This document shows, in pieces, positions 6,128-63,954 of a stretch of DNA of 64,000 nt. The notes under the pieces were generated by a model. The model worked only from the letters and a program-made list of their open reading frames with translations, was not told the DNA's origin and did no database searches. The first letter of the stretch is position 1. The number at the start of each line of letters is the position of its first letter. Both the position numbers and the translations under genes were made by a program. Origin of the DNA: a bacterium (GTDB lineage Bacteria > UBA8248); the NCBI GenBank assembly GCA_965207065.1, contig OZ242260.1, positions 3,936,001-4,000,000 of the forward strand. Direction: 5' to 3'.

Positions 6128-6862
6128 TCACCCCCCCAACCGCTTGAACGCCTCCGTCCCTCTGAACGAGGAATCGGGCTTGACGCCCTCTACGGGGGTT
6201 TTGCCTTGGGAATCTTTTGCGGCGGGGTCGGCGCCGGCGTCGAGGAGGGCTTCGATCACCGCGAGGATGACGCCGTCTTTCGCCGCCGCGTAGTGGAGCG
6301 GCGTCCGCACACGGTTGTCCCGCACGTCGGGGTTGGCGCCCGCCGCGAGCAGGGCCTTCACGATGGCGGGGGCCGAAGTGCGCATCCCCGCCCAGTGCAG
6401 GGGCGCCAGGCCCTTCCTGTCCGGCGTGTTCACCCGGGCGCCCGCACGCACGAGGATCTCCACGATGTCCGAGGCTTCGCCGAACGCAGCCGCCGCGTGC
6501 AGGGGCGTCCACCCGTATATGCCCTCCGCGTTCAGGTCGGCCCCGACGTCCAGCAGAGTCGTCACGACCTCGGGAGCCGCGTTGAACGCCACCGCCGCGT
6601 GCAGGGGCGTCGCGCCTCTTTCATCCGGCGCGTCCGCGTCGGCCCCCGCCCGTAACAGGACGGTCAACACCGCCGGGTTCTCGGCGTAGCACGCCGCCCA
6701 GTGCAGGGGCGTCCATCCCTTATTGTCCTGCACGTCCACATCGGCCCCGGCCTCGAGCAGGCTTCTCACGGCTTCCAGGGCGTCGTTGCCCATCACCGCA
6801 TGGTGTAAGGCCGTGGCTCCGTCTTTATCGCGAGCGTTCGGGTCGGTAGGTCCCGCAGACAT
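6128..6862 (-). CDS. Ankyrin-repeat protein
   Basis: About six G.TPLH.AA...LL.AGAD.N repeats. Confidence 0.95.
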   Translation of the reverse strand: MSAGPTDPNARDKDGATALHHAVMGNDALEAVRSLLEAGADVDVQDNKGWTPLHWAACYAENPAVLTVLLRAGADADAPDERGATPLHAAVAFNAAPEVVTTLLDVGADLNAEGIYGWTPLHAAAAFGEASDIVEILVRAGARVNTPDRKGLAPLHWAGMRTSAPAIVKALLAAGANPDVRDNRVRTPLHYAAAKDGVILAVIEALLDAGADPAAKDSQGKTPVEGVKPDSSFRGTEAFKRLGG

Positions 6863-13327: not shown

Positions 13328-14327
<1,000 letters not shown>

Positions 14328-14366
14328 AATCTTTCCCCCCTGTAACGCCCCGGCCTGCGGGCTCGT

Positions 14367-14891
14367 TTATCGTTTGAAAACGGCGTCCTGGCCGTCGGTT
14401 TCCTCCAGATGCACCCGCACCTCCTCGGGATGGACCGCCTCGATATTCTTCCCCACGAAATCGGCGCGGATCGGCAGCTCCCGCCCCCCCCTGTCCACCA
14501 GGATGGCGAGCCGCACCCTGCGGGGCCGGCCGAAGCCCACGAGCGCGGCCAGGGCGGCGCGCGCCGTGCGGCCCGTGTAGAGCACGTCGTCGACCAGAAC
14601 CACGTCCTTGCCCTCGCACGAGAAGGGGAGATCCGTTTTCTTGAGGCCGGTCCTCACCCCGCCGGCCTGATTCAGGTCGTCGCGGTAGAGCGTCACGTCG
14701 AGCGCGCCCACGAGCGGATGCACGCCCACCAGAGACTGAAGCTCCCGGGCCAGCCTTTCCGCGAGAGGCGCTCCCCTCGTGCGGACCCCGATGAACACAA
14801 GGTCCGACAGATCGGCCGTTCTCTCGATAATTTCATGCGAGAGGCGCCTCAGGGTGCGCCTTAGCTGCTCGGCGTCGAGTTGTTTCATCAT
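14367..14891 (-). CDS. pyrR: Pyrimidine operon attenuation protein / uracil phosphoribosyltransferase
   Basis: RTRG, LDVTLYRDD, VLVDDVLYTGRT and DRGGRELPIRADFVG. Confidence 0.97.
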   Translation of the reverse strand: MMKQLDAEQLRRTLRRLSHEIIERTADLSDLVFIGVRTRGAPLAERLARELQSLVGVHPLVGALDVTLYRDDLNQAGGVRTGLKKTDLPFSCEGKDVVLVDDVLYTGRTARAALAALVGFGRPRRVRLAILVDRGGRELPIRADFVGKNIEAVHPEEVRVHLEETDGQDAVFKR

Positions 14892-14937
14892 CAGGACGAA
14901 ATCCGGCCTTCGGGCGGTTTCAGGTCAAAAAAGGGCG

Positions 14938-14971
14938 CAAAAAAAACTCCATGCCCAAAGGGCATGGAGTT
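14938..14971 (-). terminator. pyr leader attenuator terminator
   Basis: AACTCCATGCCC-TTT-GGGCATGGAGTT hairpin followed by a U-run on the minus strand. Confidence 0.9.
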
Positions 14972-15011
14972 CGAAGAAAAGACGAGGTAATGACAAGCAT
15001 CCGCGCTTCCT

Positions 15012-15042
15012 CCTTCGCCGCCTCACGGGACGACATTAAAGG
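15012..15042 (-). promoter_or_regulatory. PyrR-binding RNA loop
   Basis: Minus RNA CCUUUAAUGUCGUCCCGUGAGGCGGCGAAGG fits the CUUUAA..GUCCNGNGAGGC..GAAGG PyrR-site pattern. Confidence 0.9.
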
Positions 15043-15140
15043 GGAATTTCTCTATCACCAGTTTGTTTCCACCCGGTAAAGATCCGACCGGGCCATTTCG
15101 TGAAAACTAGCAGTCTTTGCAGGAAAGGGCAAGAGGAAAT

Positions 15141-15455
15141 TCAGGAACGCTTCAAAAAGTCCAGCGGCGCGCCCGAAAGGCTTTCATTCTCATCGGGGAC
15201 GTGAGCGGACTCCCCCAGAATCTCGAAAAGGGCGGATGCGTCTTTTTTCGACAGATTGCGCTTCGCCTCCCCGATGATGCGGATACGCAGGGTCTTGTTT
15301 TCAAGCCTGAGGCTCAGCACGTCCCCGATTTTCACCTGGGAGGAGGCTTTGGCCGTTTTCCCCCCGATATCCACCGCACCCCCGTCCGCCATGCTCTTGG
15401 CGAGGGGACGGCGCTTGACCAGGCGGCTAAGGCGCAAAAACTGGTCGAGGCGCAT
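15141..15455 (-). CDS. S4-domain RNA-binding protein (Hsp15/RqcP-like)
   Basis: MRLDQFLRLSRLVKRR..AK..ADGGAV...KASSQVKIGD. Confidence 0.9.
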   Translation of the reverse strand: MRLDQFLRLSRLVKRRPLAKSMADGGAVDIGGKTAKASSQVKIGDVLSLRLENKTLRIRIIGEAKRNLSKKDASALFEILGESAHVPDENESLSGAPLDFLKRS

Positions 15456-15464
15456 TTCAGGTCA

Positions 15465-16970
15465 TCATTGGGTGATTTCTTTGGGATCCGCCACGATGCT
15501 GCGCGTCTTCTGGACTTCCACCTCGAACTCGATCTGTGCGGCCTTGTTCTCCGTTTCGAAGGACATTTTTTTCGCTTCGGGAGTTTTCCCCTTGTCCTCA
15601 CCCTTCGACTGGGCCGAGTACGCCTTGAGCATATCCGCAAATCTGATTTCGCCGATATACGAGTCGGGCAGCAGGTACACGTAGCGGAACAGATAGATGT
15701 TCGCCGAAGGGTCGGGGTTCACGAACAACCGGTGACCCGCCTCCAGGGCGTCGATGGCGTCTTTCCCCACACTCGCGCCCTCGCCCAACTTCACTTTGTC
15801 CGATTTCCAGCGGGGCTTGTCCCTGTTCGCGCCGTAGGCCCACAAAATTCTGCTCTGCCCGAACAGCCCGCCGCCTTGTTTGAGCTTGATGCCGACCAGC
15901 TTGAAGCTGATCTGCTCGCGAACATCACTGAACACGGAAGACAAGCCGGCGCGCGAAGCGACGGGGTCATAGCTGATTTCCAGAAAAGCGGCTCTTTTCA
16001 GCTCCGTTACCCATTCGCGGCGCCTTTTGGTGAATTTTTCCTGGAAGAGTTTGTTGCGGATTTTGCCGGACACCCTGTCGAGGGTAATCACTTTCCCCGG
16101 CGTCACGTCATCGACATGGATGACATGGAAGCCCAGCCTGGTTCTCGTCGGCTTGCTCGTCTCGCCCTTCGCCGTCGAGAAAATGAGTTCTTCGAGTTCG
16201 GGAAAGACCTCTCCTTTCTTCACGGAGCCCAACGAGCCGCCCCGGCTTTGGGCGGGGCCTTCGGAATGCTTCTCGGCCACTTTGGCGAAATCAGCGCCGG
16301 GCTTCGTGGCTTCCTCATAAGCGAGGCCCGCTTTCTTGCGCTTCGCTTCGACTTCCGAAGCGGATGCGCCCTTGTCTACGGGCAGGAAAATCTGTCGCAC
16401 CGTCCGCTTCTCGGCTTCGCGGTAGTCATCCAGATGCGCGTCGTAATAATCCGCAATTTCCTGCTCAATCACCGAGACGCGCCCGCCGACTTCCATGTTC
16501 TCCACTTTTCGCGACAGCAACCGCTTGCGAAGCTCGTCGCGATATTTTTCCATCGTCATTCCCTGCGACGATAAAAATTCGCGCAACCCGGCCGTCGTCG
16601 TCTTGTTCTCGCGCAGTATGCCCGCGATCGCATTTTCAATTTCTTTTTCGCTGACTTTCAACTCGAGGGCGGAGGCGCGCTTCACGATGAGTTTGCTCTG
16701 GATCATGGCGTCGAGCGCCTGGAGTTCGAGTTCGCGAATCCGCTGATTCAATTGTTCGCCCTTGTAACGACTCCTCATTTTCTCGACGTTCGGCTTCACG
16801 AAATCCTGGAGTTCGGAAAGCATGATGATGTCATCGTCAATCTTCGCGATGATCCTCTCGATCGTCACCGCGGAGGCGGCGGCCGGGACGGTGGTAGCCG
16901 GGGTGGACACGCCGGCGAGGGCGCAAATCACAATCGCCAGAATGAAACGGCACCTAGCCCGATACGACAT
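15465..16970 (-). CDS. surA: SurA-like periplasmic chaperone/PPIase with extra C-terminal domain
   Basis: Signal peptide, IERIIAKIDDDIIMLSEL, parvulin motifs GGSLG and GFHVI. Confidence 0.85.
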   Translation of the reverse strand: MSYRARCRFILAIVICALAGVSTPATTVPAAASAVTIERIIAKIDDDIIMLSELQDFVKPNVEKMRSRYKGEQLNQRIRELELQALDAMIQSKLIVKRASALELKVSEKEIENAIAGILRENKTTTAGLREFLSSQGMTMEKYRDELRKRLLSRKVENMEVGGRVSVIEQEIADYYDAHLDDYREAEKRTVRQIFLPVDKGASASEVEAKRKKAGLAYEEATKPGADFAKVAEKHSEGPAQSRGGSLGSVKKGEVFPELEELIFSTAKGETSKPTRTRLGFHVIHVDDVTPGKVITLDRVSGKIRNKLFQEKFTKRRREWVTELKRAAFLEISYDPVASRAGLSSVFSDVREQISFKLVGIKLKQGGGLFGQSRILWAYGANRDKPRWKSDKVKLGEGASVGKDAIDALEAGHRLFVNPDPSANIYLFRYVYLLPDSYIGEIRFADMLKAYSAQSKGEDKGKTPEAKKMSFETENKAAQIEFEVEVQKTRSIVADPKEITQ

Positions 16971-28806: not shown

Positions 28807-29415
28807 ATGAGCCAGATGATTGAAATCTTGAAACCCACCTCTTTCGTCCGTGCGGGCGACCACCCGCTGGCGGAACGGCCCGAAGATATCGGGGGTCTCA
28901 GAATCGGCTTCTTCCACAACAACAAGCCGAACGCCGACGTCCTCTTGGAGCGGATCGAAGAACTTCTCGCGCAGGAGGACGAGACCCTGCGCATCGTCCG
29001 CTGGGGAAAGCCGAACCCCACCCTGCCGGAGGACCGCCTGGAGGAATTCCTCGAACAGGTCGACCTGGCCGTCTGCGCCGTGGGCGACTGAGGGAGTTGC
29101 ACGTCATGGAGTATCCATGACTCGGTGGAGATGGAAAAAGCGGGCGTTCCGACGGCCACGTTCTGCTCGAGTGAATTCTCGGCCCTGGGCGCGAACGAGA
29201 GAACGGCGCTGGGGATGCCCGGCCTGCCGATAGTCGTCGTTGCGCATCCGGTGGGGGGAATCGCACCGGAACAGGCGCGCGCGCTGGGAGACGGTGCGGT
29301 GGAGGAGGTGCGGCGCATCCTCACGAGCGATGCCGAATCGCTCAGGCGAGAGTACCGGGAGCGCGAATACGTGCCGCCCCGCAAAACCGTGCGCCACAAG
29401 GCGCTCTTCGCATAG
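28807..29415 (+). CDS. UGSC-family selenoprotein (Sec at TGA 29089-29091), 202 aa
   Basis: ORFs 28807..29091 and 29125..29415 are in frame; the junction reads GD-U-GSCTSWS (UxxC). Confidence 0.9.
29103..29121 (+). promoter_or_regulatory. Candidate bacterial SECIS hairpin
   Basis: GTCATGGA-GTA-TCCATGAC perfect 8-bp stem starting 11 nt after the UGA. Confidence 0.75.
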
Positions 29416-29428
29416 GCGGGCGCACGAA

Positions 29429-30508
29429 ATGAACGACCACTCTCAGGAAGATATTGCGTTCGAGAGCGAGCGCGTGAAGGTTCGCGACACGCCCGAGGCG
29501 ATGGCGCGCCTGCTCGAAGCCCGGGGCTGGGGCGACGGCCTCCCCGTCGTTCCCCCGACGCCCGAGCGGGTCGCCAGAATGGTCGAAGGCTCAGGCCTCG
29601 CTCCCGATGTGGAAATCGGCCTCCTGGCGCCCCGCCAGGGAGTCATCACGGTCGAGGCCCTCGCCGTGAACGCCGTGATGGCCGGCTGTCATCCTGCGTA
29701 CATGCCCGTTCTGGTCGCTGCAGTCCGGGCGGTGCTGACGCCCGAGTTCTCGCTCCACGCCATTCAGGCGACGACCCACCCGGTGGCGCCCCTCATCATC
29801 GTGAACGGCCCTATCGTCGAGGAAATCGGCCTGAATGCCGAGTATGGATGCTTCGCCCCCGGCAACCGGGCGAACGCGACGATTGGCCGCGCGATGCGCC
29901 TGACGCTCCTGAACGTGGGCGGCGCGAGCCCCGGCGTTCTGGACCGCGCCACGCAGGGATCGCCCGCGAAATACGCGTTCTGTATCGCCGAGAACGAGGC
30001 GGCCTCCCCCTGGGAGCCATTGCACGTGGAGCGCGGCTTTGCGCCCGAGGAGAGCGCGGTGACGCTCGTGGGCTGCGAGGGACCCCACAATATCAACGAT
30101 CACGTGAGCCACACGGCGGAGGGAATTCTCGCCACCGCCGCCGACACGATGTCCATCATGGGGAGCAACAACTTCTATCTGCGCGGAGAACCCGTTCTCG
30201 CCCTCGGCCCCGAGCACGCGGCCACCATCGCGGGGGACGGCCTGACGAAAGCGGATGTGAAGGGGAGAATTTTCGAGCTCGCCCGCAAGCCCGTGCGCCA
30301 GCTGAAGCGCGGCGCCATGTGGGGGATGCAGACCTGGGGCGAGGAAATAGCCGAACACGAAGACGACGATGATTTCGAGATTCCCCTGCTCGACGGTCCG
30401 GAGGATTTACTCCTCATCGTCACGGGCGGCGCCGGCAAGCACTCGTGCTACATGCCCACCTTCGGCCCCACGCGCTCGGTGACGCGGAAGATCGACACCG
30501 GCAAATAA
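29429..30508 (+). CDS. Conserved partner protein of UGSC selenoproteins (function unknown)
   Basis: GWGDGLPVVPPT.ERV, AVNAVMAGC, RANATIGRA and ENE..SPW motifs. Confidence 0.8.
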   Translation: MNDHSQEDIAFESERVKVRDTPEAMARLLEARGWGDGLPVVPPTPERVARMVEGSGLAPDVEIGLLAPRQGVITVEALAVNAVMAGCHPAYMPVLVAAVRAVLTPEFSLHAIQATTHPVAPLIIVNGPIVEEIGLNAEYGCFAPGNRANATIGRAMRLTLLNVGGASPGVLDRATQGSPAKYAFCIAENEAASPWEPLHVERGFAPEESAVTLVGCEGPHNINDHVSHTAEGILATAADTMSIMGSNNFYLRGEPVLALGPEHAATIAGDGLTKADVKGRIFELARKPVRQLKRGAMWGMQTWGEEIAEHEDDDDFEIPLLDGPEDLLLIVTGGAGKHSCYMPTFGPTRSVTRKIDTGK

Positions 30509-31477: not shown

Positions 31478-31971
31478 GGGTCCTCTCCTCGTCCGCTCTG
31501 TAAAGCATGGAATTCATTCGCATGCCAGCGGTTTGGCGGTTCCAATCATCATTACGAGTCAAAAACTTATCACACGAAAAATTCGATTTCACGAAAATTC
31601 GCACCCTGTCGGCGCAGTTGAAAACCCCCTGCCCCCTTTTTCGAGGGGGTAAAGGCAAAGTTTCCCGCCGTCGAGGGGTGTGGGAAGAAAAAACCTTCCT
31701 GAGGAGGGGGTGGGAGTCGAACCCGACTGAGGAATGAGGTCGAACCCGATTGAGAAATGAGGGTTCGACGGGACCGGCGAGGGGGTTTTCGACAGTACCT
31801 TCACCGGATGGCCACCAAGGGTGCCATCAGCCTCCATGCAAGGTATTTCTTGCCCGGCGCCGCGCGACAAATCCACTCGTTTGCGTTGCCTCGGGTTCGG
31901 CCCCCGTGCTAGATTCTCGTTTCCGGGGAAGATGACCTTTCTTTTCTGATGAGATGGGGGAGAAACAATCC

Positions 31972-32364
31972 ATGGCGAAACAACAAATCAACTCCGATAA
32001 GGTGAAACCGGTCGCCGCGTATTCCACGGGCTGGAAGGTATCGAACGGACATCTCATCATGCTGGCGGGCCAGGTGGCAGTCGACGTGGACGGCAACACG
32101 GTCGGTGGGGACGACATCAGGGCGCAGACCCGGCAGGTGTACGAGAACATCAAGGCCGCGCTCGAGGCGGCAGGCGCCGGGATGGCGGACATCATCCGCC
32201 TTACGGTCTATATCACCGACGCTGCGAATGTCCCGGGATGCATGGAGGTGCGGCAGACATACTTCAGCGAACCCTACCCGGCAAGCACGCTCCTGATCGT
32301 GAGCGGCCTGGCGAAACCCGAATGGCTCATCGAGATCGACGCGATCGCCTTCGTGGAAGATTAG
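31972..32364 (+). CDS. RidA/YjgF-family protein
   Basis: AYS, LAGQV, PASTL...LIEIDAIA. Confidence 0.92.
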   Translation: MAKQQINSDKVKPVAAYSTGWKVSNGHLIMLAGQVAVDVDGNTVGGDDIRAQTRQVYENIKAALEAAGAGMADIIRLTVYITDAANVPGCMEVRQTYFSEPYPASTLLIVSGLAKPEWLIEIDAIAFVED

Positions 32365-32369
32365 GCGCA

Positions 32370-33224
32370 ATGAGCAACCGCAGGGCCATCGCAGATACGC
32401 TCGTGCTCGTGAAAGGAGGCGGCGACCTCGCCACAGGCGTGGCTCACCGACTTCACCGCGCGGGCTTTCCGGTCGTGATCACTGAAATCGAAAACCCCAC
32501 CATGGTAAGGCGCACAGTTTCATTCGCCGAATGCCTGTATGCGGATGAGTGGAGAGTGGAGGGAATTACCTCCATCAAGGCGGACGGGGAGACGCCCGAA
32601 GAGAAAGCGGAGAACGCGCGCGCCATCCTGGAGACGGGTTCGATTCCGGTGATGGTGGATCCGCAAGCAGAGGTGATCGCCCACCTCCGGCCCGCCGTCG
32701 TGGTGGATGCGATTCTGGCGAAGCGAAACCTCGGCACCCGCATCGAGGACGCGGAGGTCGTTGTCGGCCTGGGGCCTGGCTTCACCGCAGGTATGGATTG
32801 CCACGCCGTGGTCGAGACCTCCCGGGGACACGACCTGGGGCGGGTGATTCTCGAAGGCGCCGCGAAGCCCGACACGGGCGTTCCGGGCCCCATCGGCGGC
32901 TACACCACCGAGCGGCTGCTGCGCGCTCCTCAAGCCGGCGCCTTCACCTCCATCGCCGGAATCGGCGACGTGGTGCGTGCCGGAGAGGCCGTCGCCCATG
33001 TGGACGGCGCGGAGGTACGCTCCGCCATCGACGGCGTATTGCGCGGTCTTCTGAGAGACGGCATCAAGGTGAGCACCGGCTTCAAGGTGGGCGACGTCGA
33101 CCCGAGGGCCGAGCCCGCCCATTGCCACACGATATCCGATAAATCGCGCGCCATCGGCGGCGGCGCGCTCGAGGCCATCATGATGTTCCTGTTCGGCGTA
33201 TCAGCCATGGAGTATGCGAATTGA
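32370..33224 (+). CDS. yqeB: Selenium-dependent molybdenum hydroxylase accessory protein YqeB
   Basis: KGGGDLATGVA.RL, RRTVSF, DAILAKRNLGT, GLGPGF, ET.RGH.LG, KVGDVDPR and ISDKSRAIGGG. Confidence 0.93.
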   Translation: MSNRRAIADTLVLVKGGGDLATGVAHRLHRAGFPVVITEIENPTMVRRTVSFAECLYADEWRVEGITSIKADGETPEEKAENARAILETGSIPVMVDPQAEVIAHLRPAVVVDAILAKRNLGTRIEDAEVVVGLGPGFTAGMDCHAVVETSRGHDLGRVILEGAAKPDTGVPGPIGGYTTERLLRAPQAGAFTSIAGIGDVVRAGEAVAHVDGAEVRSAIDGVLRGLLRDGIKVSTGFKVGDVDPRAEPAHCHTISDKSRAIGGGALEAIMMFLFGVSAMEYAN

Positions 33225-34105
33225 GTACCGAAATTTTGAGTGAAACCGTGGAAAACGGCGCCTACAGGATCGGGCGCAGCGAAATCCCGATCAACGAGAT
33301 GAACGGGAACTCCTTCGTTCCTCCGGCGCAATTCTATCTCGCGGCGGGTGATGGGCTCGAGCGCATCGCGTGGGCGGTGAGCAAGAACCTGCCCGTCCTC
33401 CTCGTGGGGGAGACCGGCGTCGGCAAGACCCTCTCGGTGCGCCACCTCGCCCACATGACGAACAACGGATTCCGTCGCGTGAACCTGAACGGCATGACCA
33501 CGGTCGATGAGTTCGTGGGCAAGCTGATGATCAACGAACAGGGCACCTACTGGGTAAACGGCATCCTGGTTGACGCCATGCAGTCCGGCGACTGGCTGCT
33601 CATCGACGAGATCAACGCCTGTCTGCCCGAAATCGCCTTTTGCCTGCACAGCCTGCTCGACGACGACCGCATGATCGTCTTATCCGAATACGACGGCCGC
33701 ATCGTCAAGCCTCATCCGAATTTCAGGCTTTTCGCCAGCATGAACCCGCATGAGGACCGCAGGTACGGCGGGACCAAGCCCCTGAACGAGGCGCTTCTGG
33801 ACCGCTTCCCGGTCACCGTGAAGATGGACTACCTGCCCTTCGACGCGGAAGTCGAGGTCATCATGCAGCAGAGCGGGAACCGCGACGAGGAGCTCATCAA
33901 GCGCATGGTGCGCGTGGGCCACGACGTGCGCGAGGCCATGCTGAACGAGAAGGTGTTCTGCACGTTCAGCACCCGGCGCCTCATCGACTGGGCGCGCATG
34001 GCGGCGCAGTTCGACCCCATGGAAGCCGCCGTCTCGACCATCTTCAGCAAGGTCAACTCTTTCGACGCCAAAGTGCTCGAGGACATCGTAGACAACCACT
34101 TCTAG
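33221..34105 (+). CDS. MoxR AAA+ ATPase, CbbQ/NirQ/NorQ-like
   Basis: Walker A GETGVGKT, Walker B LLIDEIN, ALLDRF and FSTRRLIDW. Confidence 0.9.
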   Translation: MSTEILSETVENGAYRIGRSEIPINEMNGNSFVPPAQFYLAAGDGLERIAWAVSKNLPVLLVGETGVGKTLSVRHLAHMTNNGFRRVNLNGMTTVDEFVGKLMINEQGTYWVNGILVDAMQSGDWLLIDEINACLPEIAFCLHSLLDDDRMIVLSEYDGRIVKPHPNFRLFASMNPHEDRRYGGTKPLNEALLDRFPVTVKMDYLPFDAEVEVIMQQSGNRDEELIKRMVRVGHDVREAMLNEKVFCTFSTRRLIDWARMAAQFDPMEAAVSTIFSKVNSFDAKVLEDIVDNHF

Positions 34106-34119
34106 CCGGGAGATGAGGC

Positions 34120-35892
34120 ATGGAGCGCCGACGCGCCCGTCTCGAAGCGCTCGCGCAGGTGACAGCACACGATTACGAGCTCGCCCTGAACTTCGGCCCG
34201 AAGGCGAAGAACGGCGATGACGCCATTCACGTCGAAGACCCCGAACAAACCCTGGCGCGCCTGGGCGGCGACCTGAACGACGAGCACGTCCTCAGGTTCC
34301 AGAAGGGCATGACGCTCATCGAGGTGGCCCACAAAATCCAGGGGACGTTCCGCTGGGCGGGCCGCGCCGCGCTCGCAAACCGCGAGAGACCGGGACTTTT
34401 CCACATATGGCACACGCTCGAGGACGCGCGGTGCGAAAACCGCCTCGCCGAATCGCTGCCCGGCACCAAGAAGAATTTCCGCGCCTTCATCCTCCCGGCC
34501 ATCGAGGCGGCAGAGCGCAACCACATGAGTGGACAACTGCCGCTGTTTCTTCAGATCCAGTGGGGGATCTACCTCGCCGGAATCGGGCAGACGCCCGGCG
34601 TCCCTTCCGCGCGCCCCGGGGATTTGCCCGCGGCCTGGTTCGATACCGCCGTCGTTCAGATTTTTCACAGGCTCATCCCGCTGGTAGACCGCGCCTGCGC
34701 CGCCGATGACCCCAAAACCGCCTTCGATTGCGCCAACGAGATTTACGACGCCATCCAGCGCTATCTCACCGAAGAGCAGCTCTCCCGGATGGGCGAGGAT
34801 CAGGACCTCTCTGAGGTTCCTGAAGAGATTCTGCAGAAAATCGAAAGCCAGAACCTGGAGGGCGACGATGATGAAGCCCTCGATATGCTTCACCCCGAAG
34901 CGGCCGAGGAAATCGACGAAGAAGACGTGGGCGAGCAGGTCGAGCTGAGTCCGGAGGAACTCGCGGCGCTCGGGCACTGGGCCGCTCCCTGGTTCGAACT
35001 CGAGGGGAACAAAAAGGAAATCCACCCCACCGCAGATCATCCCGACGAGAGAACCATCGTACTGCCGCCCGAGGGCAAGGCCGAAGAATACGCGGCCGTC
35101 ATCGACAATGCTGGGAGCCACATCAAGGTGCTGGTGTGGAAGCTCATGCAGATCATCCAGGAGAGAACCTACACACGCTTCAGCGGCTCGCACCGTTCGG
35201 GCAAGCTGAACCTCCCGAAACTGTGGAAGCAAAGGCTGGGAAAATTCCATCTCTTCCACCGAAAAGAAGAGCCCGACAAGCTCGACGTGTGCTTTACGCT
35301 GCTCGTGGACGAGAGCGGCAGTATGAACCGCGAGTCGAAGTACATGGCCGCCAGGGAGGCGACCATCTTCTTCGCCGAAGCGCTCGACCGCCTCGACGTA
35401 CCCTTCGAGGTCATCGGTTACTCCACCGAGAGTTCTGAAGCCGCCATGGCGGCGGCCCTGGGACACATCCCGGCGTTCAAGTTCCGCCACATCCGGCACT
35501 CGCCGCTCCAGCACCGCATATACAAGGGTTTCGAAGATCACTTCGCCCAGGTCAAGAACAGGCTCGTCAACATCTACCCGCGCTTCAACAACTGGGACGA
35601 GGAACACCTGCTCTTCGCCTACCGCAGGCTCATCCAGCGGCCCGAGGAGGAGAAGATCATCATCATCACCTCGGACGGCCAGCCCAACGGGGATGCGACC
35701 CACCTCGTGAACACGGTGAACCGGCTGCAGAAACTCGGCGTCCGCGTCATCGGCGTCGGCGTGGTGGACCCCTTCGTCGAGCAAATCTACCCCAACCACA
35801 TCGTGGTGCAGGACCTCTCCCAGCTTTCCACCGAACTCGTGAACATCCTGAGGCGAGAGTTGCTCGGCGGCCTGGAGAGCCGCACTTGGTAG
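34120..35892 (+). CDS. VWA-domain partner (NorD/CbbO/CobT-like)
   Basis: LEDARCE in the N-domain, acidic linker, SGKL, MIDAS DESGS and ITSDG.P. Confidence 0.88.
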   Translation: MERRRARLEALAQVTAHDYELALNFGPKAKNGDDAIHVEDPEQTLARLGGDLNDEHVLRFQKGMTLIEVAHKIQGTFRWAGRAALANRERPGLFHIWHTLEDARCENRLAESLPGTKKNFRAFILPAIEAAERNHMSGQLPLFLQIQWGIYLAGIGQTPGVPSARPGDLPAAWFDTAVVQIFHRLIPLVDRACAADDPKTAFDCANEIYDAIQRYLTEEQLSRMGEDQDLSEVPEEILQKIESQNLEGDDDEALDMLHPEAAEEIDEEDVGEQVELSPEELAALGHWAAPWFELEGNKKEIHPTADHPDERTIVLPPEGKAEEYAAVIDNAGSHIKVLVWKLMQIIQERTYTRFSGSHRSGKLNLPKLWKQRLGKFHLFHRKEEPDKLDVCFTLLVDESGSMNRESKYMAAREATIFFAEALDRLDVPFEVIGYSTESSEAAMAAALGHIPAFKFRHIRHSPLQHRIYKGFEDHFAQVKNRLVNIYPRFNNWDEEHLLFAYRRLIQRPEEEKIIIITSDGQPNGDATHLVNTVNRLQKLGVRVIGVGVVDPFVEQIYPNHIVVQDLSQLSTELVNILRRELLGGLESRTW

Positions 35893-36713
35893 CGGAAGAA
35901 GACATCGTCCGCTCCCTCGGGGTCGAACCGGGCCAGAGCGTCGCGGCGGTCGGCGGAGGCGGCAAAACAAGCCTGCTGACGGCGATCGCCAGGCAGTTTC
36001 ATGCGCAAACCGGAAAGCCTGCGATTCTCACGACGACAACGAAGATTTTCGCGCCCCTTCCCGAAGAAGGGCTCGGGCTCGCCCTGGGTGACGCCGAGAC
36101 CCTCTCAATCAACCTCAAGTCCTTTATGAACGCATGCGGCATATCCTGGTTCGCTCGCCGCCGCAAGGGGATAGCCCCGGTTCCGGGCCATGAGAGCGAG
36201 CAGCGAATGAAGCTGAGCGGTTTTATGCCTTCTGAAATCTCCCACTTCACGCTGGGTAATGCCCTCACACTCATCGAAGCGGACGGAGCCAGAAGACTGC
36301 CCATCAAGGCGCCGGGTCCCGATGAACCCGTATTGCCGGAGAATCTCGACATTGTATTGGGCGTCGTGGGGCTGGACGCGCTGGGCGCGCCTCTCAACGA
36401 GGCGCACGTCTTTCGTCCCGGGGCTCTCGCGCGGATCTGCGACCTTCAAATCGGTGAAGAAATAACGGCTGCGGCGATCGGGAGATTATGCGCGCATCCC
36501 GATGGTCTCTTTCACAAGGCAGAGGCCGACGCGTGCAAGTGGATCGTCGTGAACAAGGCCGATCTGGAGACCTCACTGGAAAAATTGCGAGAAATCGCAT
36601 ATATTGTATGGAAGTTGGCCGGTAAGCCTCATGGCCCGGCGGACGGCATCCTCTTCACGTCTTGTATGAACAACGAATGTGAAGTATTCATACGTATCAT
36701 ACAAGATGCGTAA
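35886..36713 (+). CDS. yqeC: Selenium cofactor biosynthesis protein YqeC
   Basis: VGGGGKTS, LTTTTKI, IEADGARRLPIKAP..DEPV and VVNKAD. Confidence 0.92.
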   Translation: MVAEEDIVRSLGVEPGQSVAAVGGGGKTSLLTAIARQFHAQTGKPAILTTTTKIFAPLPEEGLGLALGDAETLSINLKSFMNACGISWFARRRKGIAPVPGHESEQRMKLSGFMPSEISHFTLGNALTLIEADGARRLPIKAPGPDEPVLPENLDIVLGVVGLDALGAPLNEAHVFRPGALARICDLQIGEEITAAAIGRLCAHPDGLFHKAEADACKWIVVNKADLETSLEKLREIAYIVWKLAGKPHGPADGILFTSCMNNECEVFIRIIQDA

Positions 36714-36744
36714 TGACTGCAATTTCATGTAGGTGGAGCAAGGA

Positions 36745-37890
36745 ATGAGCAAGGACGTATTCAGGGAAATGGCGAAACTCAAGGAAGACGGCCAGAGCGG
36801 CGCGCTCGCCACGGTCGTTGCCCGCAAGGGTTCCGCGCCCATGAGCGGCGATGCGAAGATGCTCGTGCGCGAGGACGGCAGCACGGAGGGCACGGTCGGG
36901 GGCGGTTGTCTCGAGGCCGAAGTCTGGGAAACGGCCATGAGCGTCCTCGAGTCGGGCGAACCCGAAAAGCTCCGTTTCGACCTCACCCAACAGGAAGCCG
37001 AAGACAGCGGACACATCTGCGGCGGCGTGGTGGAGATACTCGTGGAACCCTTCCGGGCGTTCCAGGAAGAGTTGCTCGATGAGATCAACCGCATCAGAAC
37101 CGAGGGAGGCAGCGCGGCGCTGGCGACCATCGTTCAGCCGGGCGATATCGAGGCGCCGAATGCGGAGAGCAGAAAGATGCTCTTCAGGCGCGACGGCAGC
37201 GCCGTGGGCGAGATTCCCGACTATTCCACGGAAATCTGGGCCGAGAGCACCCAGATCATCCGAAACGGCAGTCCCACTCTCCTGCAGTTCAACACGGACG
37301 CAGCGCGCACCGGCGAAAAAAGACCCACGCTCGAGGGAGCGACCGAAATTTTTGTCGAACCCATATCCGGCCAGCCGCTCGTATATATCTTCGGCGGCGG
37401 GCATGTTTCTTTTTGCGTCGCGCAGGCGGCCTACCTTGCCGGTTTCCGGGTTTCGGTTGTCGAGGACAGGCCCTCGTTCGCCAACAAGGAGCGCTTCCCG
37501 ATGGCGGAATCGTTCTTCGTCGGGGAATTCCCTGAAATTTTCGAGAAAATTCAGGTCGACGAATCCGACTACATGGCCATCATCACCCGGGGCCACTCGA
37601 ACGACGAGGTCGTCCTCGAATGGGCGATGAAGACACCCGCGCGCTATATCGGGATGATTGGCTCCAAAAGCAAGGTGCTGCTCACCTATCGTCATCTTCA
37701 GGACAGGGGCTACGGCAGAGGCGAACTCATCGAGCGCGTCCATGCGCCCATCGGACTGGACATCGGCGCCGATACGCCGGGTGAAATCGGGGTCGCCATC
37801 GTCGCCGAACTCATCCGTCACCGCCGCAAGGGCGGCGCGCAGAGCGAGGGCGCAGGCAGCAAAAGGGTGCAACTCAAAAGAAAATCCTAA
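36745..37890 (+). CDS. xdhC: XdhC/CoxF molybdoenzyme maturation factor
   Basis: GSAP, GTVGGGCLE, ICGG, FGGGHV, YIGMIGS and APIGLDIGA.TP.EI. Confidence 0.93.
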   Translation: MSKDVFREMAKLKEDGQSGALATVVARKGSAPMSGDAKMLVREDGSTEGTVGGGCLEAEVWETAMSVLESGEPEKLRFDLTQQEAEDSGHICGGVVEILVEPFRAFQEELLDEINRIRTEGGSAALATIVQPGDIEAPNAESRKMLFRRDGSAVGEIPDYSTEIWAESTQIIRNGSPTLLQFNTDAARTGEKRPTLEGATEIFVEPISGQPLVYIFGGGHVSFCVAQAAYLAGFRVSVVEDRPSFANKERFPMAESFFVGEFPEIFEKIQVDESDYMAIITRGHSNDEVVLEWAMKTPARYIGMIGSKSKVLLTYRHLQDRGYGRGELIERVHAPIGLDIGADTPGEIGVAIVAELIRHRRKGGAQSEGAGSKRVQLKRKS

Positions 37891-57013: not shown

Positions 57014-57982
57014 ATGCCCGCCCCGCCCGGCCTTCCCGACCGCCTGCTCGTCGCCGTGGGCGGCAACGCGACCCACCCGCCCGAGATACGCGGCACCGCA
57101 GCCGAACAGGCCGCCATCGCCGCCGCCACGGGCCGCGCGCTGCTCCCGCTGCTCCAGCTCGAGAACGAACTCATCGTCACACACGGGAACGGCCCCGTGG
57201 TCGGCAAGATACTCATGCGCCAGGCGGTGTCGAGCGAGCAGGTGACGCCCATGACGCTCGACATCTGCGTCGCCCACAGCCAGGGCGGCATCGCCTACCT
57301 CCTGATGCAGGCGTTCGAGAACGCGCTCAGGCGCGCGGGGAACCCCCGCCACGTGGTCTGCCTCCTGACGCAGGTCGAGGTCGACCCGGCGGACCCGGCC
57401 TTCGACGCGCCCACCAAGTTCGTGGGCTACACCTACACCGAAGAGGAGGCCAGAAGATACGAGCGCGAGATGGGCTGGACGTTCCGGGAGGATTCAGGAC
57501 GCGGCTGGCGGCACGTGGTCGCATCGCCCATGCCGAAGCACATCGTGGACATCTCGCTCATCGAGACGATCGCCAGGAGCGGCGCGGTGGTGATCGCGGG
57601 CGGAGGAGGCGGCATCCCCGTCGTGCGGGAAGCCGACGGCGCGCGCCGCGGGCGCGCCGCGGTCATCGACAAGGATTTGACGTCGGCCTTGATGGCGAAC
57701 GTGCTCGGCGTCGAGACGATGATGATATTAACGGCCGTGCCGCACGTTTCGATCCACTTCGGGACGCCTGAGCAGCAGGATTTGGAGAGAGTCTCCCTTG
57801 CAGACCTCAGGAAATACCACGCCCAGGGCCACTTCCCGCCCGGCAGCATGGGCCCCAAGATCGAGGCGGCCGTCCGCTTTCTGGAGGGCGGCGGGCGGCG
57901 CGTCCACATCGCCGCGCTCGAGGACGCCGTCCCCGCCCTGAGAGGCGATGCGGGGACTTGTATTTATAAAGAGGAGGGGTGA
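57014..57982 (+). CDS. arcC: Carbamate kinase
   Basis: VAVGGNA, THGNGP.VG, PTKFVG, GGGGIPV, AVIDKD and GSMGPK. Confidence 0.93.
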   Translation: MPAPPGLPDRLLVAVGGNATHPPEIRGTAAEQAAIAAATGRALLPLLQLENELIVTHGNGPVVGKILMRQAVSSEQVTPMTLDICVAHSQGGIAYLLMQAFENALRRAGNPRHVVCLLTQVEVDPADPAFDAPTKFVGYTYTEEEARRYEREMGWTFREDSGRGWRHVVASPMPKHIVDISLIETIARSGAVVIAGGGGGIPVVREADGARRGRAAVIDKDLTSALMANVLGVETMMILTAVPHVSIHFGTPEQQDLERVSLADLRKYHAQGHFPPGSMGPKIEAAVRFLEGGGRRVHIAALEDAVPALRGDAGTCIYKEEG

Positions 57983-58020
57983 CCGTAGCCGGACAGGCCC
58001 CGATGACGAGAGAGGAAAAA

Positions 58021-58165
58021 TCACTCCCCCCTTGAGGGGGAGTCGAAGAGCTGAGGGCGTAAGCCCGAAAGCGATTCGGTGGGGGGTAAAACTCGGAGTG
58101 GCGATCAAACGCGATTCACCCCCCACCACATCGACCTTCGCACAAACCGCCAGGCTTCATCCCCG
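58021..58165. repeat. ACTCCCCCCTTGAGGGGGAGT element, 3'-degenerate copy
   Basis: First ~110 bp nearly identical to the sequence from 49289. Confidence 0.85.
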
Positions 58166-58269
58166 CCACTTTGGACAGCCTCGCGCGGTGGTGCTACGTT
58201 TTCCACCTCACGACGATTCCCGTATCCACCCGCGCCCGAGGGCGCGCACAAGGCGAAGGAGGGTTCAAG

Positions 58270-59373
58270 ATGCAGGCCGACCTGTTCCGCGTGGCGATGG
58301 ACTCGCCCGACGACATCTCAGGCGTCGCCGCTCTCATCGAGGAGGGCCGCTGCCGGGCGGAAGACGTCGTCGGCATCATGGGCAAGACCGAGGGCAACGG
58401 CTGCGTGAACGATTTCTCGCGCGGGTTCAGCAACTTCGTCCTGCTCGATTATTTCTCACGCTCCATGGGCAAGCCGCGAGAAGAGGTGGAGGCGCAGATC
58501 GCCCTCATCATGTCCGGCGGCGCCGAGGGGGTCATGTGTCCGCATTTTTCGGTGTTCACGAGGTCGGAGCGCGGCTCGGCCGGCGGGAGCGCCAAGCGCC
58601 TGGCCATCGCCTCGGGCCACACGGCGGATTTTCCGCCCGAGGAGATGGGCCGGATGGCGCAGGTCCGCGCGACGGCGGACCTCGTCCGCAAGCTCATGGC
58701 GGAAGCGCATATCGAGAGCGCCGAAGATCTGCACTTCGTGCAGGTGAAGTGCCCCCTCCTGACGGGCGACCGCATGGCGGACGCCGCGGCGCGCGGGAAG
58801 AGCGTCTGCACCGAGGACACGTATAAGTCGATGGGCTACTCGCGCGGCGCATCGGCGCTGGGCGTGGCCCTGGCGGCCGGCGAGGTGGATGAGAGCGACC
58901 TGGGCGATGAGGTGATCTGCAAGGACTGGTCGCTGCAATCGGGCGTCGCTTCAACTTCGGCGGGGATAGAGCTCATGTGCAACGAGGCGATGGTCATCGG
59001 CAACAGCGCGGCCTGGGGCGGGGAGCTCGTCGTCGGCCACAGCGTCATGCGCGACGCCATCGATCGCGACGCGGTGAAGGAGGCCATCGTGAACGCGGGC
59101 GTCGGCTTCGAGTGGTCGCTCACGCCGGAGCAGCAAGGGCGCATCGTGAACGTCTTCGCCAAGTGCGAGGCCTCCCCCGACGGCCTGGTGCGCGGCCGCC
59201 GCCACACCATGCTAGACGACTCGGACATCAACAACACGCGCCACGCCCGCTCGGTGGTGAACGCCGTGGTCTCCTCCGTCGTGGGCGACACGATGATGTA
59301 CGTCTCCGGCGGCGCGGAGCACCAGGGTCCTCCCGGCGGCGGTCCCGTCGCGGCGGTCGTGCGTGTGGCGTAG
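58270..59373 (+). CDS. atzD: Ring-opening amidohydrolase, cyanuric acid hydrolase (AtzD)-like
   Basis: GKTEGNGCVND, MSGG, QVKCPLL, SMGYSRGASALG and YVSGGAEHQGP.GGGP. Confidence 0.88.
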   Translation: MQADLFRVAMDSPDDISGVAALIEEGRCRAEDVVGIMGKTEGNGCVNDFSRGFSNFVLLDYFSRSMGKPREEVEAQIALIMSGGAEGVMCPHFSVFTRSERGSAGGSAKRLAIASGHTADFPPEEMGRMAQVRATADLVRKLMAEAHIESAEDLHFVQVKCPLLTGDRMADAAARGKSVCTEDTYKSMGYSRGASALGVALAAGEVDESDLGDEVICKDWSLQSGVASTSAGIELMCNEAMVIGNSAAWGGELVVGHSVMRDAIDRDAVKEAIVNAGVGFEWSLTPEQQGRIVNVFAKCEASPDGLVRGRRHTMLDDSDINNTRHARSVVNAVVSSVVGDTMMYVSGGAEHQGPPGGGPVAAVVRVA

Positions 59374-60217: not shown

Positions 60218-61288
60218 CTACCCCGCCTTGACGTTGCGCCGCGCCTGCACGAACACCACCGTGAGCACGATGATGGCCTGGAAGACGAACACCGCCGCCC
60301 CCGGCAGTCCGATGCTGCGCTGGAGCGAATCCGAACCCGACACCAGCACCGCGAACACCGCGGCGGCTATCGTGACGCCCAGGGGGTTGTTGCGCCCGAT
60401 GACGGCTATCAGGATGGCCATCGCCCCGTAGTTGGGCGCGCCCTCCGCCCCGCTGATGCCGAGCAGGAGGCTCTGGTGGAATCCCGATACCTCGATGGCC
60501 CCGGCCAGTCCCGAGAGCGCGCCGCAGGTCGGCATGATGATGAGCGTGACGCGCGCGACGTTGATGCCGCCGAAGCGCGCGGCGCGCGGGTTGTCCCCCA
60601 CCGCGCGAATCTCGTAGCCGGCGATGGTGCGCGTCATGAAGTAGTACATGCCGACCGCCGCCGCCAGCGCGATGATGAAGCCTGCGTGCGCGCCCGCCCT
60701 CGGCATCACCTGGGGCAGCACGGAGGCGTCCGGGATCGGGAGCGATATGGCCTCTCCCGCCAGCGGGTCGTTCCAGGGGCCGTTCGCGAGGTAGTCCACG
60801 AGGTAGAGCGCGACGAAATTCAGCATCACCGTCACGAAAATCTCGCTCACCTGGAAGCGCACGCGCAGGATGCCGGGGATGAATCCCCAGAACCACCCAC
60901 CCAGGATGCCGCCCAGAAGCCCCAGCGGCACGAAGACCGGCCAGGGGAGGTTCATGCCTTCCAGGGCAAAGGCCGTGCCCGTCATCCCGATCGCGCCCGC
61001 GTATATCTGCCCGTCCACGCCGATGTTGAAGTGCCCGCCCCGCATCCCGAAGGCCACCGCGAGCGAGGCGAGCAGGAGCGGGGAGAACTTATTGAGCGTC
61101 TGCGCGAACCCGCCCCACGTGCCGAGCGAGGAGCGAAGGACGGTCCCGAGCGCGACGAGCACGTCGCCGCCGAAGGCCACGATGAAGACGGCCCCGCACG
61201 CCAGCGCCAGCGCGCCCGCCGCCGCGTAGGTGACGGCGAATTCCATCGCCATCTTTTTCTTCTCGCTCACGCTCGCAGGCGCCGCCAT
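60218..61288 (-). CDS. Nucleoside-type ABC transporter permease
   Basis: FNIGVDGQ and GYEIRAVGDNPRAARFGGI. Confidence 0.93.
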   Translation of the reverse strand: MAAPASVSEKKKMAMEFAVTYAAAGALALACGAVFIVAFGGDVLVALGTVLRSSLGTWGGFAQTLNKFSPLLLASLAVAFGMRGGHFNIGVDGQIYAGAIGMTGTAFALEGMNLPWPVFVPLGLLGGILGGWFWGFIPGILRVRFQVSEIFVTVMLNFVALYLVDYLANGPWNDPLAGEAISLPIPDASVLPQVMPRAGAHAGFIIALAAAVGMYYFMTRTIAGYEIRAVGDNPRAARFGGINVARVTLIIMPTCGALSGLAGAIEVSGFHQSLLLGISGAEGAPNYGAMAILIAVIGRNNPLGVTIAAAVFAVLVSGSDSLQRSIGLPGAAVFVFQAIIVLTVVFVQARRNVKAG

Positions 61289-61289
61289 A

Positions 61290-62849
61290 TCAGGAAACCT
61301 CTCCTTCTTTCTGCCCCGCCATCAGGGCGCCTATCTGGTAGATGTCGTATTCGGGGCCGTCGAAGGTGCCCAGAATCTCGCCCGCGTAGATGACGACGAT
61401 GCGGTCGCTCATCTGGCAGAGTTCGTCCAGGTCTTCTGAAATCAGCAGGACGCCCGCGCCGCCCGCGCGAAGCTCCCGCAGCCGGCCGTGCACGAACGAG
61501 GCGGCCATGACGTCGAGACCGCGCGTTGGGTTGTTGGCGATCATCGCCTTCCCACCCGTCCTGTGGGCGAGCATGACCGCGCGCGCCACGATGGTCTTCT
61601 GGATGTTCCCGCCAGAGAGGTGCGCGGCGGGCACGTGCTCGTTCCGCGCCAGGATGTTGAACTCCGCGATGGCGTTCCTGCCCAACTCATGCGCGGCCTC
61701 GCGCTCGAACACGCCGCGCCGCTTGAAGATGTGCGGGTGGAGTCCCAGCACGAAATTCTCGGCCAGGCTCAGGCCCGGCAGAATCCCCTCCTCTATCCTG
61801 TCCTGCGGCAGGAGGCTCATCCCCCGCGCGATGCGTCCGGCCACCGAAAGGGCGGAGACCTCCTCGCCGCCCAGGTGGACTTCACCTTCTTCTATCTCGA
61901 TGAGTCCGGCCAGGGCTTCGGCCAGTTCCTTCTGGCCGTTTCCCGAGATTCCCGCCATGCCGACGATGAGTCCGCGGGGGACGTCGAAGGCGACGTCGGT
62001 GAGCGGAACCCCCGACTTCGCCGAGGTGCGCACCCCCCGTACGGAAAGGGCGGGGTCTCCCTCACGCGCCGCCGAGGGTCCGGTCGGCCGCTCGCCCACG
62101 GGCGGCATGCCGCGCTCGCCCATCATCATCTGCACGAGCCTGTCGCGGGTGGCCTCCTCGCGGGGGATGGTGTCGATCTTGCGGCCGCCGCGGAACACGG
62201 TAATCCTGTCGCAGTTGTCCAGGACCTCCTGGATCTTGTGCGTGATGAAGACCACCGTCAGCCCCCCCTTGGCGAAGGATTTCAGTATGGCGAACAGCCC
62301 GTCCACCTCGTGAGGGGTCAGCATGGTCGTCGGCTCATCCAGAATCAGGATGTCCGCGCCGTGGTAGAGCGCCTTCAGGATTTCGACCTTCTGCTGAATC
62401 CCTGCGGGAAGGGTTTTCACCTGCTCGTCGAGCGGGATGGAGAGGCCGTAATTCGCAGCCAGCTCTTCCACGGAGGCGCGCTGGGCGTCCACGTCGAGCC
62501 TCCAGCGCGAGCCTTCCCTGCCCAGCAGAATGTTCTCGAGCGCCGTGAAGTTGCCGATCAGCTCCACGTGCTGGTGAACCATCCCGACGCCGACCGCGAT
62601 CGCATCCTGCGGCGAGTGGATATCCACCTCACGCCGGTCGACCACTATCTGGCCCTCGTCCAAGCGGTAGAGGCCGCTCAGGATGTTCATGAGCGTGGTC
62701 TTGCCCGCGCCGTTCTCCCCCAGGAGGGCGTGAATCTCCCCCTTGGCGGCCTCGAAGTCCACGGCGTCCAATGCGCGGACTTCCCCGAAGGACTTGCTGA
62801 CACCGTACATTTCGACGCAAGGGACGTGTTTCGCCGTCATCGCTTTCAT
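61290..62849 (-). CDS. ABC transporter ATP-binding protein (double domain)
   Basis: GENGAGKT, ILDEPT and LSGGNIQK. Confidence 0.95.
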   Translation of the reverse strand: MKAMTAKHVPCVEMYGVSKSFGEVRALDAVDFEAAKGEIHALLGENGAGKTTLMNILSGLYRLDEGQIVVDRREVDIHSPQDAIAVGVGMVHQHVELIGNFTALENILLGREGSRWRLDVDAQRASVEELAANYGLSIPLDEQVKTLPAGIQQKVEILKALYHGADILILDEPTTMLTPHEVDGLFAILKSFAKGGLTVVFITHKIQEVLDNCDRITVFRGGRKIDTIPREEATRDRLVQMMMGERGMPPVGERPTGPSAAREGDPALSVRGVRTSAKSGVPLTDVAFDVPRGLIVGMAGISGNGQKELAEALAGLIEIEEGEVHLGGEEVSALSVAGRIARGMSLLPQDRIEEGILPGLSLAENFVLGLHPHIFKRRGVFEREAAHELGRNAIAEFNILARNEHVPAAHLSGGNIQKTIVARAVMLAHRTGGKAMIANNPTRGLDVMAASFVHGRLRELRAGGAGVLLISEDLDELCQMSDRIVVIYAGEILGTFDGPEYDIYQIGALMAGQKEGEVS

Positions 62850-62907
62850 CCATTCCAGGCGCCCCGCCCCGCTCGGAAAATCGGGGAGGGGCGCCCACGC
62901 CTTCTGT

Positions 62908-63909: not shown

Positions 63910-63954
63910 TTCACATTCCTCCTTGATGGGAAAGCACGATATCCCGGACATGGC

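Follow-up and report, generated by a model that had tools for sequence, protein, structure and literature searches.

A CobS/CobT-like AAA+/VWA protein pair encoded between yqeB and yqeC-xdhC is a candidate maturation motor for molybdenum hydroxylases

It is established for NorQD, CbbQO and CobST that an AAA+ ATPase ring works with an adaptor bearing a von Willebrand factor A (VWA) domain, which grips the client protein through a metal-ion-dependent adhesion site (MIDAS). Among the proteins that mark the selenium-cofactor trait of molybdenum hydroxylases, YqeB has genetic support and YqeC has no phenotype. For an enzyme of the xanthine dehydrogenase (XDH) family, the CoxDEF paper (PMC4240915) describes CoxD (AAA+), CoxE (VWA) and CoxF (XdhC-like) as needed to sulfurate and complete the molybdenum site of folded CO dehydrogenase; the sulfuration by CoxD of this buried site is ATP-dependent, and CoxE works with CoxF. 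According to PMC11448449, no route of selenium incorporation is understood less well than the delivery of the labile selenium ligand to the molybdenum site, and the genes for it 'lack characterization'. Here we describe a gene pair coding for an AAA+ ATPase and a VWA protein that lies between yqeB and yqeC-xdhC in a 64,000-nucleotide stretch of bacterial DNA from the lineage UBA8248 (hereafter the window; positions 3,936,001 to 4,000,000 of contig OZ242260.1, assembly GCA_965207065.1).

The link between this pair and the maturation of XDH-family hydroxylases is well supported. A preliminary description of the window, made from its sequence, had proposed that the pair opens an XDH-family enzyme to load a selenium-bearing molybdenum cofactor (Se-Moco). 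The part of the proposal that concerns hydroxylase maturation stands on the adjacency of the pair to yqeB, seen in 45 of the 48 phylum genomes that carry the VWA gene, on the presence of selD and 10 XDH-family enzymes in the genome, and on a hydroxylase encoded beside the pair in 21 of 25 loci of the Anaerolineae; the opening of the enzyme, the loading of Se-Moco and any involvement of selenium are inferred. We consider it probable that the pair has some part in maturing or repairing hydroxylases, and we lean slightly towards the narrower view that it works with YqeB, YqeC and XdhC at the step installing the terminal chalcogen ligand. That this step is specifically the insertion or re-insertion of selenium is a tentative proposal, as is the complete picture in which the pair, YqeB as selenium carrier, YqeC and XdhC might form an ATP-powered machine that (re)installs the labile Mo=Se ligand in folded hydroxylases.

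The genome consists of one contig of 4.48 Mb (59.5% G+C, 96% complete by marker genes). From the open reading frames (ORFs) and family scans, we observed six genes arranged head to tail on the + strand at 31954-37890 in the order ridA-yqeB-AAA-VWA-yqeC-xdhC (Table 1). This order, the single strand and the two junctions singled out in the preliminary description (33221/33224 and 35886/35892) all agree with the ORF coordinates: the TTG start of the ATPase gene (33221) overlaps the TGA of yqeB (33222-33224), and the TTG start of yqeC (35886) overlaps the TAG of the VWA gene (35890-35892). The yqeB ORF as listed opens at 32238, but translation more likely begins with the ATG at 32370, which follows the ridA stop by 5 nt. 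The client enzyme had been placed outside the window, and rightly so, as Pfam scans of 88 + 17 ORFs detected no XDH-family enzyme in the window and 0 of the 10 PF02738 matches of the genome lie inside it. A promoter/terminator scan gave nothing exceeding shuffled controls. Contigs from RNA libraries (X16, X18 and X15, the last equal to X17) touch ridA, yqeB, the ATPase gene, yqeC and xdhC with short pieces of low depth and leave 34350-36590 bare; they are no proof of transcription and were not used. The library runs holding these pieces carry the label sponge metagenome.

Table 1. Genes of the ridA-xdhC row, with positions counted from the first nucleotide of the window
Gene product	Position	Strand	Family evidence
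RidA (RidA/L-PSP family), first gene of the row	31954-32364	+	PF01042, 98 bits
YqeB, 284 aa from ATG	32370-33224	+	TIGR03309, 367 bits (cut-off 220)
AAA+ ATPase (AAA_5 / CbbQ-NorQ-CobS kind), 294 aa	33221-34105	+	AAA_5, 101 bits; CbbQ_C, 37 bits
VWA/MIDAS adaptor, CobT-like, 590 aa	34120-35892	+	CobT_C, 68 bits; VWA, 30 bits
YqeC, P-loop protein	35886-36713	+	TIGR03172, 158 bits (cut-off 73); PF19842, 119 bits
XdhC-family molybdenum cofactor (Moco) insertion chaperone	36733-37890	+	XdhC_C, 127 bits; XdhC_CoxI, 94 bits

We compared this locus with CoxDEF of Oligotropha carboxidovorans, the nearest functional precedent, and with the selenium-cofactor trait loci. CoxDEF likewise joins the genes of an AAA+ ATPase and a VWA protein to that of a protein of the XdhC family, and the class of enzyme served, the XDH family, is the same (PMC4240915). 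The two differ in that the Cox step is a sulfuration followed by the addition of copper, whereas the window set is without a copper step. The VWA protein of the window matches CobT_C and has no VWA_CoxE (PF05762) match at E ≤ 0.001, its partners are YqeB and YqeC, and no enzyme genes adjoin the window-type operon in this phylum. We ruled out that the pair represents the CoxD and CoxE of this genome, as a separate ATPase and VWA_CoxE protein are encoded elsewhere, with identities to their window counterparts of just 24% and 21%. The latter genes stand on the - strand at C1:3451351-3455038 of the genome contig (L113:6352-10038), in a row of coxM-like, coxS-like, CoxD-like ATPase and VWA_CoxE (PF05762, 205 bits) genes with no adjoining large-subunit gene. 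The selenium-cofactor trait loci reported in 2008 resemble the window locus in YqeB, YqeC, selD and XDH-family enzymes, and also in having XdhC and L-PSP genes nearby, as in the E. faecalis locus; the window locus differs from them by the AAA+/VWA pair between yqeB and yqeC.

Relatives of the pair were collected by a scan of one genome per species, in which 129 were found and the best 80 loci were kept, and the phylum-wide searches covered 51 species genomes. Among the kept relatives, 43 loci were of the window type. The order yqeB-AAA-VWA was present in 38/38 window-type genome loci with upstream sequence and in 11 further metagenome contigs. Downstream, yqeC was present in 36 of the 41 window-type loci with sequence on that side, mostly followed by xdhC, and all 5 exceptions belonged to a single family (f4). 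Across the phylum, the VWA gene was found in 48/51 genomes and YqeB in 49/51 (47 above the cut-off). Judged by coordinates, the VWA gene and yqeB reside on one contig, 0.9-1.3 kb apart, in 45 of the 48 genomes, a gap that fits the ATPase gene; in the remaining three (G319, G348 and G313), the genes are on different contigs of assemblies of 260-490 contigs. Hence, a gene order that recurs in 38/38 related genome loci with upstream sequence and in 45/48 genomes of the phylum is not due to chance. Linkage of the pair to yqeB elsewhere had been set beforehand as a point on which the proposal could fail, and it was found.

The phyletic pattern, which represents few independent events among mutually related genomes, follows the hydroxylases. 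Two genomes of one genus (G309 and G310; 2.1 Mb, 95% complete) are the two in the phylum without both the pair and YqeB, and they gave 0 PF02738 and 0 XdhC matches; two equally small genomes that bear the operon have six hydroxylases each. A genome of the same class as that of the window (G308, 5.2 Mb) has 73 PF02738 matches and a single XdhC gene. The former number is an unusually large expansion of this enzyme family. XdhC is a single gene in the window genome, where it is the sole PF02625 match, and as a rule across the phylum. Because there is one XdhC per genome despite 6 to 73 hydroxylases, the data fit one maturation operon serving all the hydroxylases of the cell.

The pair was also found in a second, independent gene context, in Anaerolineae (Chloroflexota). 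In 25 genome loci of this class, identity to the window proteins is 63-68% for the ATPase and 34-38% for the VWA protein. Directly upstream of AAA-VWA, 21 of these loci carry genes for the FAD, 2Fe-2S and Mo subunits of a hydroxylase (FAD-FeS-Mo(N)-Mo(C); Pfam check on L078); of the remaining four, three lack sequence on that side and L063 offers 1.1 kb with no match. The same hydroxylase-AAA-VWA arrangement was observed in 18 metagenome contigs. The Mo subunit is split into two ORFs in 18/18 loci showing both halves, and over their full length these halves match NdhL and NdhM of the nicotinate dehydrogenase of Eubacterium barkeri (PDB 3HRD), with 239 and 228 bits compared with 189 and 175 for the next entry. 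The Anaerolineae enzyme has the same four-gene make-up as NdhF/S/L/M, with the split Mo subunit, and the latter is its best solved match; this likeness concerns the Anaerolineae neighbour and not the window, the 10 large subunits of whose genome are unsplit. PMC11448449 counts nicotinic acid hydroxylase as one of the selenium-dependent hydroxylases, with reference to Wagener et al. 2009.

Purpose-built hidden Markov models detected no YqeB or YqeC at the Anaerolineae pair loci. Elsewhere in the genome, yqeB and yqeC occur together in all five pair-bearing Anaerolineae genomes examined, and XdhC is encoded 6-8 kb downstream of the pair in about half of the loci. The motor thus occurs either behind an enzyme of the selenium-dependent type or between two markers of the selenium trait. 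In the ATPase tree, the two phyla are parted by one branch (support 94/100) and lie close together relative to the outgroups, whose branches are very long. This topology would fit a spread of the pair between the phyla by one transfer, in either direction.

Next to the gene contexts, we considered what the two proteins are. The ATPase has an AAA_5 core and a CbbQ_C lid (Pfam cut-offs 22 and 20.6 bits, respectively), which places it in the AAA_5 / CbbQ-NorQ-CobS group of the MoxR class, and its translation has intact GETGVGKT and LLIDE motifs, which we take to be Walker A and Walker B. Among the solved single-domain relatives in the PDB, it scored 101 bits with CobS, 82 with NorQ and 80 with CbbQ; Midasin outscores CobS only through having six such domains. 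A profile of the VWA protein scored 102 bits with CobT and is collinear with both TIGR01651 and PDB 9uka. This protein is a VWA/MIDAS adaptor of the CobT_C type (DxSxS, T, D), and its MIDAS residues D397, S399, S401, T436 and D519 are invariant in 22 sequences. Its structural model (predicted local distance difference test score, pLDDT, of 77) has a helical N-domain, which an acidic disordered linker connects to the C-terminal VWA domain. In Foldseek comparisons, the VWA domain model matched best the MIDAS domains of MDN1/Rea1 and the VWA domain of NorD in NorQD complexes, and the helical N-domain had no match. The orthologous group is small: a profile search of 1.84 billion representative proteins returned 1358 matches at E ≤ 1e-30, of which about 10 exceed 370 bits, and the next ones reach ≤320.

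CobS and CobT of the CobNST system are the nearest sequence relatives of both proteins, with similar lengths, collinear matches and the common architecture of an AAA_5 ATPase and a C-terminal VWA protein with an acidic linker. The context in the window is one of molybdenum hydroxylase maturation and not of cobalamin synthesis. A cobaltochelatase assignment was rejected on two grounds: the ATPase scored 91.6 bits with the CobS equivalog TIGR01650 against a cut-off of 558.55, and the VWA protein 58.2 bits with the CobT equivalog TIGR01651 against 759.05; and CobN (PF02514) gave 0 matches in the whole 96%-complete single-contig genome. With NorQ/NorD and CbbQ/CbbO, the window pair has in common the Pfam families AAA_5 and CbbQ_C, the likeness of its VWA model to the NorD domain, and the principle of an ATPase ring and a MIDAS adaptor acting on a finished metalloenzyme. 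The PDB scores of NorQ and CbbQ trail that of CobS, and no nitric oxide reductase (NOR) or Rubisco genes are in the context. NOR and heme-copper oxidase families were absent from the Pfam matches of the window and of the annotated related loci, a genome-wide norB search not having been made. By family and PDB scores, the pair is closer to CobS and CobT than to the CbbQ/NorQ type.

The genes of the selenium-cofactor trait are complete in this genome: YqeB and YqeC score above their curated cut-offs, and selD and XDH-family enzymes are present. The presence of selD and of molybdenum hydroxylases was the other point on which the proposal could have failed. The selD gene (C1:543537-544499) scored 334.5 bits against a cut-off of 125 and contains one in-frame TGA; judging from this codon, SelD itself probably contains selenocysteine, which would imply that the selenocysteine machinery is present. 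YqeB is encoded in single copy. Its Cys252 is invariant among 25 aligned sequences, and its model (pLDDT 90) consists of a Rossmann-like N-domain, resembling E1/TcdA-like and dehydrogenase NAD domains, and a barrel-sandwich C-domain, resembling biotinyl/lipoyl carriers in the model comparison. A PDB sequence search with YqeB and another with YqeC returned no relative at E ≤ 0.01. The YqeC motif GGGGKT was read from the DNA, and a second YqeC copy is at genome positions 1634410-1635198 (C1; TIGR03172 134 bits, above the cut-off of 73). An M20 peptidase gene follows this second copy, which recalls ygeY in the table of the E. coli selenium-trait locus, and about 6 kb away is the gene of an XDH-family large subunit, unaccompanied by genes for FAD or Fe-S subunits. 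XdhC of the window belongs to its family by both the XdhC_CoxI N-domain and the XdhC Rossmann domain, and with the narrower equivalog NF045664 it scored 312 bits, under the cut-off of 350. In many related loci, too, yqeB is directly preceded by ridA, and the E. faecalis selenium-trait locus likewise includes an L-PSP gene, EF2574 (PMC2432076).

Several possible routes to the client were followed. The genome encodes 10 XDH-family large subunits (PF02738), none of them split, and none attains any NCBIfam equivalog cut-off. In two loci of one genus (L054 and L056, 97% identical), hydroxylase genes are 3-5 kb downstream of yqeB-AAA-VWA, and a metagenome contig (L124) has genes for Fe-S and Mo subunits at a similar distance from the pair; L055 and L058 are without such genes. 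This proximity is weak support at most for a client link. L056 also carries, at 13530-15876 between its VWA gene and the hydroxylase, a molybdoenzyme of the DMSO-reductase family read as three ORFs (Molybdop_Fe4S4 + Molybdopterin, then Molydop_binding), which may stem from a frameshift or from an in-frame stop codon decoded as selenocysteine. Distant matches of the VWA protein in Eubacteriales/Bacillota (L087-L096) were set aside as unrelated; L088, with PcfJ and PcfK, was taken as a conjugative-element locus and has a different architecture. L085 is a distant archaeal pair.

The following observations weigh against the proposed role of the pair in the maturation of these hydroxylases or against its selenium part. 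No client enzyme is encoded within 10 kb in the loci of families f1-f3 of the phylum. The hydroxylases of the window genome include no clear ortholog of the Anaerolineae enzyme. A search for the client by similarity failed: for the Anaerolineae subunits and for the large subunit of L056 alike, the best matches in the genome were only 30-40% identical. In family f4, yqeC and xdhC do not adjoin the pair, although the yqeB link is kept. Of 301 evenly sampled Anaerolineae genomes, 171 had a YqeB above the cut-off and 2 had the pair, so YqeB normally works without the pair. Given this background of 171/301, we dropped the occurrence of YqeB in 4/5 pair-bearing Anaerolineae genomes (and of a fragment in the fifth) as support. 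Split NdhM-like proteins of 47-64% identity were present in 23 sampled genomes without the pair, and only the NdhM-like subfamily at ≥85% identity accompanies it. We call a selenium-specific role of the pair plausible, and treat selenium in these hydroxylases and contacts between the proteins as predictions.

In the mechanism that we propose, the ATPase and the VWA protein would be the two parts of an AAA+/MIDAS motor, of one kind with CobS/CobT and NorQ/NorD, that has been recruited to the maturation of XDH-family hydroxylases. The VWA protein would dock via its MIDAS site onto the client, either an apo-hydroxylase or an XdhC-Moco complex; these are the candidates because both gene contexts point to them. 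The hexameric ATPase would then spend ATP to keep the cofactor site open, which could allow the terminal chalcogen ligand of molybdenum to be placed, with YqeB, together with SelD, supplying selenium. By analogy with the described systems, we predict here that the two proteins bind one another, which client they serve, that ATP drives the opening, and any part that selenium has in it.

Much of the above could also be accounted for by a general motor that serves XDH-family enzymes in the insertion of Moco or in sulfuration and acts independently of selenium, the adjacency to yqeB then being a gathering of maturation genes in one operon. The operon holds the only XdhC of the genome and has 6 to 73 hydroxylases per genome to serve, sulfur and not selenium is at issue in the precedent of CoxD, and the pair is rare among YqeB-bearing Anaerolineae (2/301 vs 171/301). 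However, the tightest and most conserved link of the pair is with yqeB and not with xdhC (45/48, with overlapping stop and start, and kept in f4), the partner enzyme in Anaerolineae is nearest to the selenium-dependent nicotinate dehydrogenase, and the genome has a separate CoxD/CoxE-like pair beside coxM/coxS-like genes. We regard a selenium-independent motor as a doubtful explanation, though one to be kept in view.

The pair might instead be a reactivase that acts on hydroxylases as CbbQ/CbbO acts on Rubisco, repairing enzymes with a lost labile Se/S ligand or a damaged cofactor and dispensable for their first assembly. It belongs to the same AAA_5/CbbQ_C + VWA class as CbbQO, one module faces many client enzymes, and the selenium ligand is described as labile in PMC11448449; yet both sequences are nearer to CobS/CobT, an insertion motor, than to CbbQ, and we find repair as the sole function unlikely. 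Least probable is a function unrelated to hydroxylases, as a cobaltochelatase motor or a NorQ/NorD-type activator of another metalloenzyme in an incidental position. The best family and PDB matches are indeed CobS and CobT, and some sources label the homologs 'cobaltochelatase CobS' or 'CobT-related', but the equivalog scores are far too low (92 bits vs 559 for CobS, 58 vs 759 for CobT), CobN is missing from the 96%-complete single-contig genome, two different but related contexts are conserved across two phyla, and the pair is missing exactly where hydroxylases are missing.

The combination had been put forward as undescribed, and this holds in the searchable open literature, supplementary tables and subscription journals lying outside that scope. 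In open full texts, MoxR, von Willebrand and xanthine dehydrogenase occur together only in the CoxDEF paper, and a search for selenium-dependent molybdenum enzymes with AAA+ proteins found nothing. Related searches led, besides the CoxDEF paper, to a chaperone review, an unrelated genome paper and a paper on a mycobacterial MoxR ATPase. The texts on the selenium trait comprise Haft and Self 2008 (PMC2276186), Zhang et al. 2008 (PMC2432076), Lin et al. 2015 (PMC5322559), Peng et al. 2016 (PMC5029168), Johnstone and Self 2024 (PMC11448449) and a 2025 purine preprint (10.1101/2025.04.24.650524). Their main texts mention neither AAA or ATPase nor MoxR or von Willebrand, except that AAA and ATPase appear in PMC5029168, where they concern other things. 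What is new here is that the CoxDEF principle (AAA+/VWA/XdhC) is realised by an unrelated, CobS/CobT-like pair and is tied to markers of the selenium trait.

Some further features of the window and the genome were recorded. At 57014-59373 (+) and 60218-63951 (-), the window contains a carbamate-kinase-like gene (AA_kinase), a barbiturase/cyanuric-acid-hydrolase gene (Amido_AtzD_TrzD, 498 bits) and an adjoining ABC transporter of the Bmp/PnrA type. These genes could belong to an oxidative pyrimidine or ring-opening pathway, of which the first step in known systems is carried out by an XDH-family enzyme. A conserved ORF upstream of the operon (29240-30508, +; 422 aa) has no Pfam or NCBIfam match and has 14 paralogs in the genome; four of them stand in tandem (C1:1430095-1434255) directly beside the XDH-family large subunit at C1:1434424-1436787. 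Its atlas neighbours are auto-named 'thioredoxin family protein' with high confidence, and there is a faint lead to the UGSC family, scored slightly lower. The stretch at 3802-6862 (-) has a G+C of 0.48 compared with about 0.60, carries ORF6N and DUF2971 genes and adjoins an ankyrin-repeat protein; it is possibly a mobile or defence islet.

The AAA+/VWA pair is a new candidate for the machinery by which the active site of molybdoenzymes is completed, and a compact, conserved six-gene set ties YqeB, YqeC and XdhC to an ATPase motor. The rule that an AAA+ ATPase, a VWA protein and an XdhC-like protein finish a molybdenum hydroxylase is extended from CoxDEF to a second, unrelated ATPase/VWA lineage. 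Taken together, the Anaerolineae and window contexts provide a defined set of client and helpers that is open to co-expression and assay, and they flag a phylum with very many XDH-family enzymes and one maturation operon. If the proposal is true, the selenium machine would enable lineages outside the clostridia, sponge-associated ones among them, to operate selenium-dependent hydroxylases at scale, up to dozens of paralogs per genome.

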